From: Eledone cirrhosa
Lineage: Eukaryota
Direction of reading: 5' to 3'
NCBI GenBank assembly: GCA_964016885.1
Contig: OZ024749.1
Span: 24,614,001 to 24,678,000, forward strand
Length of the DNA stretch: 64,000 bases
Part shown: positions 51,453 to 57,331 of the stretch, one piece after another
Layout of the letters: the number at the start of each line of letters is the position of its first letter
Numbering within the stretch: the first letter of the stretch is position 1
The notes under the pieces: generated by a model
Told to the model about the DNA's origin: nothing
Databases searched by the model: none
What the model saw: only the letters and a program-made list of their open reading frames with translations
Position numbers and translations under genes: made by a program

Positions 51453-53271
51453 ATATAAAGGACGTAAAATAAGAAAATATTTTTTTAAAAAAATTTAAAA
51501 AAAATTTTTTTCTTACTTAAATTTTCACTCCAACTAATTAGTTTCTGCAATGGGATAAAGACAGTTACGTAATCCAACTGTCGAGAATTCATTGCGTCAT
51601 CAGGAAGTCTATTCTCAGTTAAGTCTCCAGGCAATGCGCGGACACTGGCGGCTCATATAAAAATAATAATAATTCGGTAGATCGAACAGCTTGCGAGGAC
51701 TGGATTCTATGTACCGAAATTCTCACTGCTTCAAGTCAAATGGCCGATTCTAAAGAATCAATCACGTGACACAGAGGCTAGTTAGAAGGAATGGGATGGT
51801 AAGATGACTGACGCCTACTAACACCCCAAAAAAAATTTTTTTAGAAGTGGTTTTGACAAGTTTGCTCGACAAATCAGTGATTTGGAGATAAATATAGATA
51901 ATTTAATATATCAACTAACATAAGCGCACAGATGCACGCCCATGCCAGCAAATACACAGGTTATGTCATAGTACCTAGGTGGTTCAATGCAGGAGAATGC
52001 AGAACAATAATATAAAGGACGTAAAATAAGAAAATATTTTTTTTTAAAAAAAATTTAAAAAAAATTTTTTTCTTACTTAAATTTTCACTCCAACTAATTA
52101 GTTTCTGCAATGGGATAAAGACAGTTACGTAATCCAACTGTCGAGAATTCATTGCGTCATCAGGAAGTCTATTCTCAGTTAAGTCTCCAGGCAATGCGCG
52201 GACACTGGCGGCTCATATAAAAATAATAATAATTCGGTAGATCGAACAGCTTGCGAGGACTGGATTCTATGTACCGAAATTCTCACTCCTTCAAGTCAAA
52301 TGGCCGATTCTAAAGAATCAATCACGTGACACAGAGGCTAGTTAGAAGGAATGGGATGGTAAGATGACTGACGCCTACTAACACCCCAAAAAAAATTTTT
52401 TTAGAAGTGGTTTTGACAAGTTTGCTCGACAAATCAGTGATTTGGAGATAAATATAGATAATTTAATATATCAACTAACATAAGCGCACAGATGCACGCC
52501 CATGCCAGCAAATACACAGGTTATGTCATAGTACCTAGGTGGTTCAATGCAGGAGAATGCAGAACAATAATATAAAGGACGTAAAATAAGAAAATATTTT
52601 TTTTAAAAAAAAATTTAAAAAAAATTTTTTTCTTACTTAAATTTTCACTCCAACTAATTAGTTTCTGCAATGGGATAAAGACAGTTACGTAATCCAACTG
52701 TCGAGAATTCATTGCGTCATCAGGAAGTCTATTCTCAGTTAAGTCTCCAGGCAATGCGCGGACACTGGCGGCTCATATAAAAATAATAATAATTCGGTAG
52801 ATCGAACAGCTTGCGAGGACTGGATTCTATGTACCGAAATTCTCACTCCTTCAAGTCAAATGGCCGATTCTAAAGAATCAATCACGTGACACAGAGGCTA
52901 GTTAGAAGGAATGGGATGGTAAGATGACTGACGCCTACTAACACCCCAAAAAAAATTTTTTTAGAAGTGGTTTTGACAAGTTTGCTCGACAAATCAGTGA
53001 TTTGGAGATAAATATAGATAATTTAATATATCAACTAACATAAGCGCACAGATGCACGCCCATGCCAGCAAATACACAGGTTATGTCATAGTACCTAGGT
53101 GGTTCAATGCAGGAGAATGCAGAACAATAATATAAAGGACGTAAAATAAGAAAATATTTTTTTAAAAAAAATTTAAAAAAAATTTTTTTCTTACTTAAAT
53201 TTTCACTCCAACTAATTAGTTTCTGCAATGGGATAAAGACAGTTACGTAATCCAACTGTCGAGAATTCATT
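51453..53271 (-). repeat. Left arm of the hammerhead satellite: ~3.2 x 560-bp units; HHRs at 51527-51608, 52087-52168, 52647-52728 and a half HHR at 53205-53271
   Basis: 560-bp period; reverse complement of the right-arm unit; outer end merges into (TA)n. Confidence 0.93.
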
Positions 53272-56200
53272 TTTTAAATTTTTTTTAAAAAAATATTTTC
53301 TTATTTTACGTCCTTTATATTATTGTTCTGCATTCTCCTGCATTGAACCACCTAGGTACTATGACATAACCTGTGTATTTGCTGGCATGGGCGTGCATCT
53401 GTGCGCTTATGTTAGTTGATATATTAAATTATCTATATTTATCTCCAAATCACTGATTTGTCGAGCAAACTTGTCAAAACCACTTCTAAAAAAATTTTTT
53501 TTGGGGTGTTAGTAGGCGTCAGTCATCTTACCATCCCATTCCTTCTAACTAGCCTCTGTGTCACGTGATTGATTCTTTAGAATCGGCCATTTGACTTGAA
53601 GCAGTGAGAATTTCGGTACATAGAATCCAGTCCTCGCAAGCTGTTCGATCTACCGAATTATTATTATTTTTATATGAGCCGCCAGTGTCCGCGCATTGCC
53701 TGGAGACTTAACTGAGAATAGACTTCCTGATGACGCAATGAATTCTCGACAGTTGGATTACGTAACTGTCTTTATCCCATTGCAGAAACTAATTAGTTGG
53801 AGTGAAAATTTAAGTAAGAAAAAAAATTTTTTTTAAATTTTTTTTAAAAAAATATTTTCTTATTTTACGTCCTTTATATTATTGTTCTGCATTCTCCTGC
53901 ATTGAACCACCTAGGTACTATGACATAACCTGTGTATTTGCTGGCATGGGCGTGCATCTGTGCGCTTATGTTAGTTGATATATTAAATTATCTATATTTA
54001 TCTCCAAATCACTGATTTGTCGAGCAAACTTGTCAAAACCACTTCTAAAAAAATTTTTTTTGGGGTGTTAGTAGGCGTCAGTCATCTTACCATCCCATTC
54101 CTTCTAACTAGCCTCTGTGTCACGTGATTGATTCTTTAGAATCGGCCATTTGACTTGAAGCAGTGAGAATTTCGGTACATAGAATCCAGTCCTCGCAAGC
54201 TGTTCGATCTACCGAATTATTATTATTTTTATATGAGCCGCCAGTGTCCGCGCATTGCCTGGAGACTTAACTGAGAATAGACTTCCTGATGACGCAATGA
54301 ATTCTCGACAGTTGGATTACGTAACTGTCTTTATCCCATTGCAGAAACTAATTAGTTGGAGTGAAAATTTAAGTAAGAAAAACATTTTTTTTAAATTTTT
54401 TTTAAAAAAATATTTTCTTATTTTACGTCCTTTATATTATTGTTCTGCATTCTCCTGCATTGAACCACCTAGGTACTATGACATAACCTGTGTATTTGCT
54501 GGCATGGGCGTGCATCTGTGCGCTTATGTTAGTTGATATATTAAATTATCTATATTTATCTCCAAATCACTGATTTGTCGAGCAAACTTGTCAAAACCAC
54601 TTCTAAAAAAATTTTTTTTGGGGTGTTAGTAGGCGTCAGTCATCTTACCATCCCATTCCTTCTAACTAGCCTCTGTGTCACGTGATTGATTCTTTAGAAT
54701 CGGCCATTTGACTTGAAGCAGTGAGAATTTCGGTACATAGAATCCAGTCCTCGCAAGCTGTTCGATCTACCGAATTATTATTATTTTTATATGAGCCGCC
54801 AGTGTCCGCGCATTGCCTGGAGACTTAACTGAGAATAGACTTCCTGATGACGCAATGAATTCTCGACAGTTGGATTACGTAACTGTCTTTATCCCATTGC
54901 AGAAACTAATTAGTTGGAGTGAAAATTTAAGTAAGAAAAAAATTTTTTTTAAATTTTTTTAAAAAAAAATATTTTCTTATTTTACGTCCTTTATATTATT
55001 GTTCTGCATTCTCCTGCATTGAACCACCTAGGTACTATGACATAACCTGTGTATTTGCTGGCATGGGCGTGCATCTGTGCGCTTATGTTAGTTGATATAT
55101 TAAATTATCTATATTTATCTCCAAATCACTGATTTGTCGAGCAAACTTGTCAAAACCACTTCTAAAAAAATTTTTTTTGGGGTGTTAGTAGGCGTCAGTC
55201 ATCTTACCATCCCATTCCTTCTAACTAGCCTCTGTGTCACGTGATTGATTCTTTAGAATCGGCCATTTGACTTGAAGCAGTGAGAATTTCGGTACATAGA
55301 ATCCAGTCCTCGCAAGCTGTTCGATCTACCGAATTATTATTATTTTTATATGAGCCGCCAGTGTCCGCGCATTGCCTGGAGACTTAACTGAGAATAGACT
55401 TCCTGATGACGCAATGAATTCTCGACAGTTGGATTACGTAACTGTCTTTATCCCATTGCAGAAACTAATTAGTTGGAGTGAAAATTTAAGTAAGAAAAAA
55501 ATTTTTTTTAAATTTTTAAAAAAAAAATATTTTCTTATTTTACGTCCTTTATATTATTGTTCTGCATTCTCCTGCATTGAACCACCTAGGTACTATGACA
55601 TAACCTGTGTATTTGCTGGCATGGGCGTGCATCTGTGCGCTTATGTTAGTTGATATATTAAATTATCTATATTTATCTCCAAATCACTGATTTGTCGAGC
55701 AAACTTGTCAAAACCACTTCTAAAAAAATTTTTTTTGGGGTGTTAGTAGGCGTCAGTCATCTTACCATCCCATTCCTTCTAACTAGCCTCTGTGTCACGT
55801 GATTGATTCTTTAGAATCGGCCATTTGACTTGAAGCAGTGAGAATTTCGGTACATAGAATCCAGTCCTCGCAAGCTGTTCGATCTACCGAATTATTATTA
55901 TTTTTATATGAGCCGCCAGTGTCCGCGCATTGCCTGGAGACTTAACTGAGAATAGACTTCCTGATGACGCAATGAATTCTCGACAGTTGGATTACGTAAC
56001 TGTCTTTATCCCATTGCAGAAACTAATTAGTTGGAGTGAAAATTTAAGTAAGAAAAAAATTTTTTTTTAATTTTTTTTAAAAAAATATTTTCTTATTTTA
56101 CGTCCTTTATATTATTGTTCTGCATTCTCCTGCATTGAACCACCTAGGTACTATGACATAACCTGTGTATTTGCTGGCATGGGCGTGCATCTGTGCGCTT

Positions 56201-57331
56201 ATGTTAGTTGATATATTAAATTATCTATATTTATCTCCAAATCACTGATTTGTCGAGCAAACTTGTCAAAACCACTTCTAAAAAAATTTTTTTTGGGGTG
56301 TTAGTAGGCGTCAGTCATCTTACCATCCCATTCCTTCTAACTAGCCTCTGTGTCACGTGATTGATTCTTTAGAATCGGCCATTTGACTTGAAGCAGTGAG
56401 AATTTCGGTACATAGAATCCAGTCCTCGCAAGCTGTTCGATCTACCGAATTATTATTATTTTTATATGAGCCGCCAGTGTCCGCGCATTGCCTGGAGACT
56501 TAACTGAGAATAGACTTCCTGATGACGCAATGAATTCTCGACAGTTGGATTACGTAACTGTCTTTATCCCATTGCAGAAACTAATTAGTTGGAGTGAAAA
56601 TTTAAGTAAGAAAAAAATTTTTTTTAAATTTTTTTTAAAAAAATATTTTCTTATTTTACGTCCTTTATATTATTGTTCTGCATTCTCCTGCATTGAACCA
56701 CCTAGGTACTATGACATAACCTGGGCGTGCATCTGTGCGCTTATGTTAGTTGATATATTAAATTATCTATATTTATCTCCAAATCACTGATTTGTCGAGC
56801 AAACTTGTCAAAACCACTTCTAAAAAAATTTTTTTTGGGGTGTTAGTAGGCGTCAGTCATCTTACCATCCCATTCCTTCTAACTAGCCTCTGTGTCACGT
56901 GATTGATTCTTTAGAATCGGCCATTTGACTTGAAGCAGTGAGAATTTCGGTACATAGAATCCAGTCCTCGCAAGCTGTTCGATCTACCGAATTATTATTA
57001 TTTTTATATGAGCCGCCAGTGTCCGCGCATTGCCTGGAGACTTAACTGAGAATAGACTTCCTGATGACGCAATGAATTCTCGACAGTTGGATTACGTAAC
57101 TGTCTTTATCCCATTGCAGAAACTAATTAGTTGGAGTGAAAATTTAAGTAAGAAAAAAATTTTTTTTAAATTTTTTTTTAAAAAAATATTTTCTTATTTT
57201 ACGTCCTTTATATTATTGTTCTGCATTCTCCTGCATTGAACCACCTAGGTACTATGACATAACCTGTGTATTTGCTGGCATGGGCGTGCATCTGTGCGCT
57301 TATGTTAGTTGATATATTAAATTATCTATAT
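53271..57331 (+). repeat. Right arm of the hammerhead satellite: ~7.3 x 558-559-bp units; HHRs start at 53722, 54281, 54839, 55398, 55956, 56514 and 57056
   Basis: Near-identical head-to-tail units; one has a 16-bp deletion near 56723; outer end merges into (TA)n. Confidence 0.95.
53722..53803 (+). ncRNA. Type I hammerhead ribozyme of the 559-bp unit (representative of 10 complete copies)
   Basis: ACTTC-CTGATGA-C-GCAATG...GACAGTT-GGATTACGT-AACTGTC...CATTGC-A-GAAA-CTAATTAG-TT-GGAGT; stems I, II and III all pair; predicted GUU cleavage after 53798. Confidence 0.88.

Follow-up and report, generated by a model that had tools for sequence, protein, structure and literature searches.

Two-armed insertions of a 559-bp hammerhead repeat in (TA)n tracts of Eledone cirrhosa point to a retrozyme moved by a Penelope-like element

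How does a non-coding repeat with a hammerhead ribozyme motif in every unit reach new places in a genome? The question is raised by an array at 51453 to 57331 of a 64,000-nt stretch of Eledone cirrhosa DNA (GenBank assembly GCA_964016885.1, contig OZ024749.1, forward-strand positions 24,614,001 to 24,678,000), here called the window. A preliminary description had presented the array as a head-to-tail satellite of about 10.5 near-identical units of ~559 bp, had proposed a young retrozyme family and had named a link to Penelope-like elements. The limits and the unit count hold. The array is, however, neither head-to-tail nor a satellite: it inverts at 53270-53271 into two divergent arms and is one of many dispersed insertions. 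The two arms end at two different fixed sites of the unit, named A and B, and the same pairing recurs across the genome; together with the inversion, these fixed 3' ends tell most about the array. We regard the family as probably a non-autonomous non-LTR (long terminal repeat) retrozyme, moved by the reverse transcriptase (RT)-endonuclease of a Neptune-type Penelope-like element.

Structure of the insertion in the window

The unit is numbered from the first base after the predicted hammerhead cut (base 1 = 53799). The parts of the array, with (TA)n tracts called by Tandem Repeats Finder (TRF), are as follows.

51330..51457, no strand: (TA)n tract (TRF), left target flank, adjoining the minus arm
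51453..53271, minus: arm 1, 3.26 units in tandem, running from unit base 498 (5' end) to unit base 81, which is site A (3' end)
53270..53271, no strand: 5'-to-5' (head-to-head) inversion junction with 2-nt microhomology
53270..57331, plus: arm 2, 7.3 units in tandem, running from unit base 31 (5' end) to unit base 199, which is site B (3' end)
53722..53803, plus: first type I hammerhead of the plus arm, with a cut predicted after 53798 and stems supported by covariation
52647..52728, 52087-52168 and 51527-51608, minus: type I hammerhead, minus copies, pattern in the sequence
53799..54357, plus: monomer of 559 nt from one predicted cut to the next, z = -3.95 versus shuffles for its predicted fold
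53875..53879, plus: site A, UAUAU, unit bases 77-81, internal copy of one of the two fixed 3' ends
53880..53997, plus: 'tail' from A to B, 118 nt, with two hairpins, one short and one long (predicted, ~23 bp), z = -2.98
53993..53997, plus: site B, UAUAU, unit bases 195-199, internal copy of the second fixed 3' end
54119..54143, plus: invariant block with two palindromes, from an alignment of 10 units
57312..57743, no strand: (TA)n tract (TRF), right target flank

The structure of the product and its target are directly visible here, both arms stopping at a UAUAU that runs on into (TA)n. Alignments of arm 2 extend to base 203 through chance matches, its 3' end being base 199. The units measure 558-560 nt and are 99-100% identical, apart from one of 542 nt with a 16-bp deletion (97%), and have a GC content of 0.34-0.37, below the 45-50% bound for non-LTR retrozymes. 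No frame of at least 110 aa was found inside the array, except for (TA)n read-through at the edges. The invariant block is a possible internal promoter or RNA signal, and its palindrome GTCACGTG resembles what we take to be an E-box.

Two fixed 3' ends, one of each per two-armed insertion

Across the genome (3.0 Gb, 1,796 contigs), a degenerate pattern of the hammerhead core had 8,539 matches against 0 for the reversed control; a narrower core pattern gave 4,983 against 14, exact site-B junctions 558 against 0, and the site-A junction pattern 371 against 19. The best matches were 99-100% identical on many contigs, and the family is thus young.

Insertions were analyzed in 107 fetched stretches and the window. 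These comprised the best DNA matches, the first 38 further site-B places on contig C1 and two loci picked as possible counter-examples; 20 further loci, aiming at older copies, were picked from the first 100 places of the narrower core pattern. L077 is the continuation of L057. Among 119 calls, 63 were two-armed and 56 single-armed. The two-armed loci comprised 56 A+B, no A+A, no B+B and seven with one unclassified end, of which L057 resolves as A+B, L058 and L123 show site A just beyond the alignment break, and L118 (twice) and L128 end at other points; L039 is the seventh. All 34 classified loci not selected by an end had mixed ends (p ~6e-11 at even odds), and in the set selected by B the second arm ended at A in 22/22 (p ~2e-7 at even odds). 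Either type of end was found on the left side (32 versus 24 loci), and the rule was kept in copies as low as 77% identity. On C1, with 90 B ends and 55 A matches, 32 of the 33 neighbouring end pairs within 12 kb, a set overlapping the fetched loci, were outward-facing A/B pairs, the other being two same-strand B ends. A seeming B+B pair on contig C2 (L117) proved to be two separate insertions.

The single arms followed the same ends, 55 of 56 calls terminating at A or B, with variable 5' ends. The target is likewise shared: when edges, gaps, duplicates and the most diverged copies were excluded, (TA)3 lay at the 5' side too in 38 of 44 single arms, against a background of 16%. The unit holds four UAUAU motifs, at bases 77, 181, 195 and 432, and only A and B serve as 3' ends, apart from L120 (base 185); microhomology alone does not, therefore, select the ends. 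Nor would selection against palindromes explain the pairing, since A+A and A+B should form equally long inverted repeats. The (TA)n target, fixed 3' end, 5' truncation, partial tandems, inverted copy and one-end tail are those of Penelope-type insertion.

In older subfamilies (L119, L121, L124, L133 and L134), a (CT)n run stands between site B and (TA)n and is missing from the internal copy. This suggests that reverse transcription began with reiterative slippage of a telomerase-like kind.

Autonomous elements with the same layout

Two families of RT-encoding elements were found in the genome. N1, reached from the window fragment 27291-27776, has a 3,254-bp unit and 43,707 first-look candidates, and N2, reached from a flank, a 3,531-bp unit and 24,240 candidates. 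Copies of N2 are up to 100% identical, and one holds an intact 784-aa open reading frame (ORF; L166:2256-4607), for which no Pfam or PDB match was found and which fell into Atlas RT and GIY-YIG-type clusters at 0.96-0.99. By their motifs and these clusters we call N1 and N2 Neptune-like, using traits that we take to mark the Neptune clade. The N2 family, seen at L166 and at G000:C1:437198000-437217000, is very young, with the intact ORF in identical tandem copies and no hammerhead detected, and many tiny two-armed remnants of the N2 end lie within (TA)n.

Both families insert in (TA)n and have two fixed ends, ~88 nt apart in N1 and ~80 nt apart in N2. By hand count, the 14 two-armed loci of N1 comprised nine with mixed ends, three cut by an edge, two with an internal end and none with the same end twice, and the 16 of N2 comprised 14 mixed, one unclassified and one same-end locus. 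The same rule was observed in elements that encode an RT.

The hammerhead motif and its covariation

The array contains 10 complete type I hammerhead cores, seven on the plus strand (the further copies begin at 54281, 54839, 55398, 55956, 56514 and 57056) and three on the minus strand, and a partial one at 53205-53271 (minus) without CUGAUGA. Their number, their stems (ACUUC/GGAGU in stem I, GCAAUG/CAUUGC around a 7-bp hairpin in stem II, and a palindromic stem III) and the predicted cut after 53798 and then at each 558-559 nt agree with the preliminary description. The core boxes, CUGANGA and GAAA, are present with an NUH triplet (here GUU) and an open helix I. The preliminary description did not mention two extra nucleotides: in the general core numbering, an extra C follows A9 in 47/47 variants and an extra A precedes G12 in 46/47, although neither was required by the variant search pattern, and the closing G-C pair of helix II does not directly adjoin A9 and G12.

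Stem conservation in diverged copies was analyzed in 49 distinct variants from the fetched loci, of which 47 remained after two cut by junctions were dropped. Paired cells made up 94.3% of the stems, and double-sided changes were present in 8/20 pairs; 66 double-sided cells fell in the stems, compared with 17 in shuffles, a comparison inflated because the copies are related, and at most nine in slid controls. Compensatory changes were observed in helices I and II and the inner hairpin, with C-G, U-A, G-C and A-U all occurring at pair 2 of helix II. Helix III was invariant; its letters, like those of the core, were demanded by the search, so that this invariance is partly by construction. Given the 8,539 genomic matches against none in the control and the covarying stems, the core, as read from sequence, is real and not a chance pattern.

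The monomer is predicted to fold more stably than its shuffles, as listed above. For a single motif, an alternative fold is predicted to be more stable than the hammerhead (-19.9 versus -15.2 kcal/mol). The stem III palindrome could pair over 10 bp with that of a second copy (-9.0 kcal/mol), in line with the expectation for a dimer-type hammerhead in the accessible text of two sources (PMC4209133; PMC6765202). By its sequence the family qualifies as a non-LTR retrozyme, and its dispersal, near-identity and covariation support the proposal of a young family whose units each carry a single type I hammerhead. An LTR layout was not seen in the loci examined, where no search for a primer binding site (PBS) or polypurine tract (PPT) was made.

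Junctions, 5' ends and the template

The 56 inversion junctions comprised 32 with microhomology, 12 blunt, 11 with an insert and one other. They were private to their loci, with one near-match among the 56, across different subfamilies, and five were near-perfect palindromes against 0.7 expected. The lengths of the two arms were related weakly and uninformatively (rho 0.24, p = 0.08). Twin priming in the style of L1, in which an arm stops at the other's start, was rejected, with 3/56 and 1/56 cases against 3.1 expected each.

Both arms pass the cut site in 42/56 loci, and arms are as long as 11 units, so that the template was either circular or a multimer that had stayed uncut. Of 180 arm 5' ends, six lay at the predicted cut against 1.9 expected (p = 0.014), and in L091 both arms begin there; since other hot spots exist, this, the one in vivo sign of cleavage, is a hint only. 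Arm 5' ends also recur at unit bases 488-490, in the CUGAUGA box (L032, L035, L066, L071 and L093), a possible structural stop.

Variants private to a locus were common to both arms in L110, L034, L040, L049, L056, L062 and L071, and run signatures were identical in 21% of cross-arm pairs compared with 5% of cross-locus pairs. Both arms thus derive from one template lineage. Private variants that run through all units of both arms favour a monomer bottleneck.

Proposed mechanism and alternatives

The arrays would be transcribed, the palindromic stem III would let adjacent hammerheads pair with each other, and these would excise monomers of 559 nt. These would be ligated into circles, which should resist re-cutting because each holds only one weak hammerhead. 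The template of insertion is likely such a circular RNA. To judge from the insertions, the Penelope protein would cut both strands of a (TA)n tract, and each 3' end would pair with an RNA UAUAU, that of site A for one end and that of site B for its partner, and be extended. The resulting cDNAs, seen in the product, would be of variable length and often several units, and their far ends would be joined, blunt or by a few bases of microhomology, into the two divergent arms also seen there; if one end failed, a single 5'-truncated arm would result. More tentatively, and with less than even confidence, a Penelope-type RT acting as an asymmetric dimer may hold one circular RNA at two sites 118 nt apart, one per cut end of the (TA)n tract, with both subunits rolling round the circle by strand displacement. 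If so, the arrays would directly record, in the genome, rolling-circle reverse transcription begun from two ends, and the 'tail' of Penelope elements would be the spacing of two active sites.

Several observations weigh against a retrozyme of this kind moved in this way. The Rfam check proposed in the preliminary description gave no hammerhead match in the window at the gathering score, nor was a hammerhead among six weak matches up to E = 10, and the core carries the extra A before G12 together with a GUU triplet. In the accessible text of a recent survey, eight of nine predicted Xenopus retrozyme dimers were uncleaved (10.64898/2026.07.22.740005). Stops at the cut site are weakly enriched, and other 5' hot spots exist. 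Some variants occupy alternating or adjacent units only (L035, L036, L050, L056, L077 and the window), which a single monomer circle cannot produce, pointing to multimeric templates or later local duplication. Neither N1 nor N2, the two families compared, shows sequence homology to the retrozyme unit or has a hammerhead core in its own unit, so that the partner is named as a type and not as a family. N2 forms tandems (four evenly spaced matches, 100% identity over two units) with no hammerhead detected, and tandem arms hence need no ribozyme-made circles; in one N2 locus, L172 (86% identity, 69-bp gap), the two arms share one type of end. In vitro, the start sites used by the enzyme of the Poseidon element PAc of Anolis carolinensis did not differ between strands, and its priming involved no homology (PMC11167929).

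The template need not be a circle. With the same Penelope machinery and start sites, it could be a linear multimeric read-through transcript, the hammerhead being slow or dispensable and the arrays being lengthened later by local duplication, a reading we find possible and rather doubtful. It would account for period-2 and period-4 variant patterns and for L036, the one locus where the G459A pattern of both arms fits one mixed multimer with a one-unit offset; it also agrees with the tandem N2, in which no hammerhead was detected, and with hammerhead mutants that left insertion by the anole enzyme unaffected (PMC11167929). The fixation of new variants in every unit of both arms, as in L110, L103 and L100, fits it poorly, since this calls for a monomer bottleneck followed by re-multimerisation. 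Arms of up to 11 units that run intact across many cut sites, and ribozyme stems preserved through compensatory change, also speak against it. A single priming event, in which the first cDNA folds back and is copied into the inverted arm before the endonuclease trims it at the other site, draws on the self-priming and 'EN-mediated resolution' (EN, endonuclease) ideas in the accessible text of earlier work (PMC3846280; Craig et al. 2021, 10.1101/2021.04.23.441226). The excess of near-perfect palindromic junctions would follow from it, as would variants common to both arms. Arm lengths are incompatible with mutual copying in 13/56 loci, compared with 13.9 expected under independent sizing, which rules it out as a general route; we consider it improbable, with room for a minority of loci.

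Two further explanations leave out a Penelope enzyme. Fixed termini that differ between the two ends, long arms in inverted orientation and a TA target are compatible with a foldback DNA transposon, and one with termini A and B, internal deletions by gap repair and the hammerhead as a passenger would mimic the two-armed loci. Such an element is very unlikely and is largely refuted by the single arms (56/119 calls) with one fixed end and a variable 5' end, by internal junctions not common to loci, by the covarying ribozyme and by RT-encoding elements of the same layout. Inverted chimeric reads in the assembly, or an ordinary satellite, are hardly credible. Inverted repeats without a spacer and long (TA)n tracts are indeed hard to sequence, but an artefact would yield a mirror image of one arm; the arms observed are unequal in length and stop at distinct fixed sites in 56 loci, on many contigs and in several subfamilies.

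A retrozyme moved by a Penelope-type enzyme is the reading we prefer, and the A+B ends and the rule common to N1 and N2 lend structural support to the Penelope link named in the preliminary description. The mover of animal retrozymes has so far been argued from co-occurrence, shared hammerheads and likeness to pseudo-LTRs (pLTRs); here the insertions themselves bear a Penelope fingerprint, in common with active RT-encoding elements of the same genome. The strict A+B pairing is a number that every model has to explain, and a 559-nt RNA with two mapped start sites together with an intact 784-aa candidate enzyme makes the mechanism directly testable.

Other repeats and elements in the window and flanks

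A second, unrelated hammerhead repeat lies between (TA)n tracts at 10217-11597 (minus; 472 bp x 2.9, 99.7% identical) and contains ATGCAAAT, which we take to be octamer-like. Its relatives occur at 6848-7482, at 29320-29929 and in many fetched loci, some of which have two arms that end close to unit bases 242 and 313-316. At 35905-35929 (plus) lies a minimal hammerhead motif of the Penelope type, in which helix III is very short. The flanks of L159 and L165 hold other hammerhead-like motifs with a long helix II and a different helix III, that of L159 also having an extra C and A around helix II.

Penelope-like fragments in the window are one of N1 at 27288-27803 (minus) and a GIY-YIG-like end of another family at 20372-20926 (minus). 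At 17487-18122 (minus) a non-LTR retrotransposon is represented by a C-terminal fragment, whose zf-RVT match is weak (E 1e-4) and falls below the curated cut-off. In the regions 58500-62300 and 63378-64000, long open frames rich in Thr, Pro and Asn extend over a 12-bp repeat, and there is a tandem repeat of 60 bp; these are possibly mucin-like coding sequence or simple repeat.

Comparison with known systems

Non-LTR retrozymes, as described in the accessible text of two sources, consist of non-coding tandem units of low GC content, each holding a single type I hammerhead, and for them a route from circular RNA (circRNA) to tandem cDNA has been proposed with Penelope elements as candidate partner (PMC7229834, Cervera and de la Peña 2020; 10.64898/2026.07.22.740005, Li et al. 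2026). Those of metazoans resemble the 559-bp family in their thousands of dispersed copies and short palindromic helix III. The unit lies inside the range of 51-972 bp given in the available part of Li et al. (10.64898/2026.07.22.740005) and is longer than the 170-400 nt circles tested in the work on metazoan non-LTR retrozymes. No homology to the pLTR of an autonomous element was found, N1 and N2 being the families compared. In the accessible retrozyme literature we found neither arms joined head-to-head, nor a pair of fixed 3' ends, nor insertion targeted to (TA)n, and the words 'inverted' and 'microsatellite' are absent from the available text of PMC7229834. We did not find an earlier report of the Penelope architecture in a retrozyme: the literature search, to which subscription papers and repeat databases were closed, yielded neither an inverted head-to-head retrozyme nor a count of A+B-type end pairing. 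A search of the octopus literature listed no description of the 559-bp family.

Compared with Penelope-associated hammerheads (PMC4209133, Cervera and de la Peña 2014), the extra base on the 5' side, the C after A9, is common to those described in the accessible text, which holds no statement that we found on an extra A before G12. That second extra nucleotide, the long two-tier helix II, the 5-bp helix I and the GUU triplet set the present motif apart.

The two-armed architecture is a known Penelope signature, since the inverted copy, the one-end tail, the (TA)n bias and the two start sites have all been published. In the parts available, Penelope elements show partial tandems, 5' truncation and an adjacent inverted 5'-truncated copy, with a tail that is usually one-ended and a microsatellite bias in Neptune and Naiad, and the origin of the tandem, inverted structure and one-sided tail is stated there to be open (10.1101/2021.04.23.441226, Craig et al. 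2021; PMC3846280, Arkhipova et al. 2013). Unlike the elements described there, the 559-bp family has no ORF and a tail of 118 nt instead of 30-40 bp, a length that the tails of N1 and N2 (~88 and ~80 nt) likewise exceed; its one-end rule is counted, without A+A or B+B, and both arms are often multi-unit. A biochemical counterpart is PAc, which in vitro takes an AT-rich target, cuts and extends both strands, uses two internal RT start sites matching the tail and is predicted to be a dimer (PMC11167929, Frangieh et al. 2024). In the 559-bp family, by contrast, one end uses site A and its partner site B; these lie 118 nt apart, and each matches the target over the 5 nt of UAUAU.

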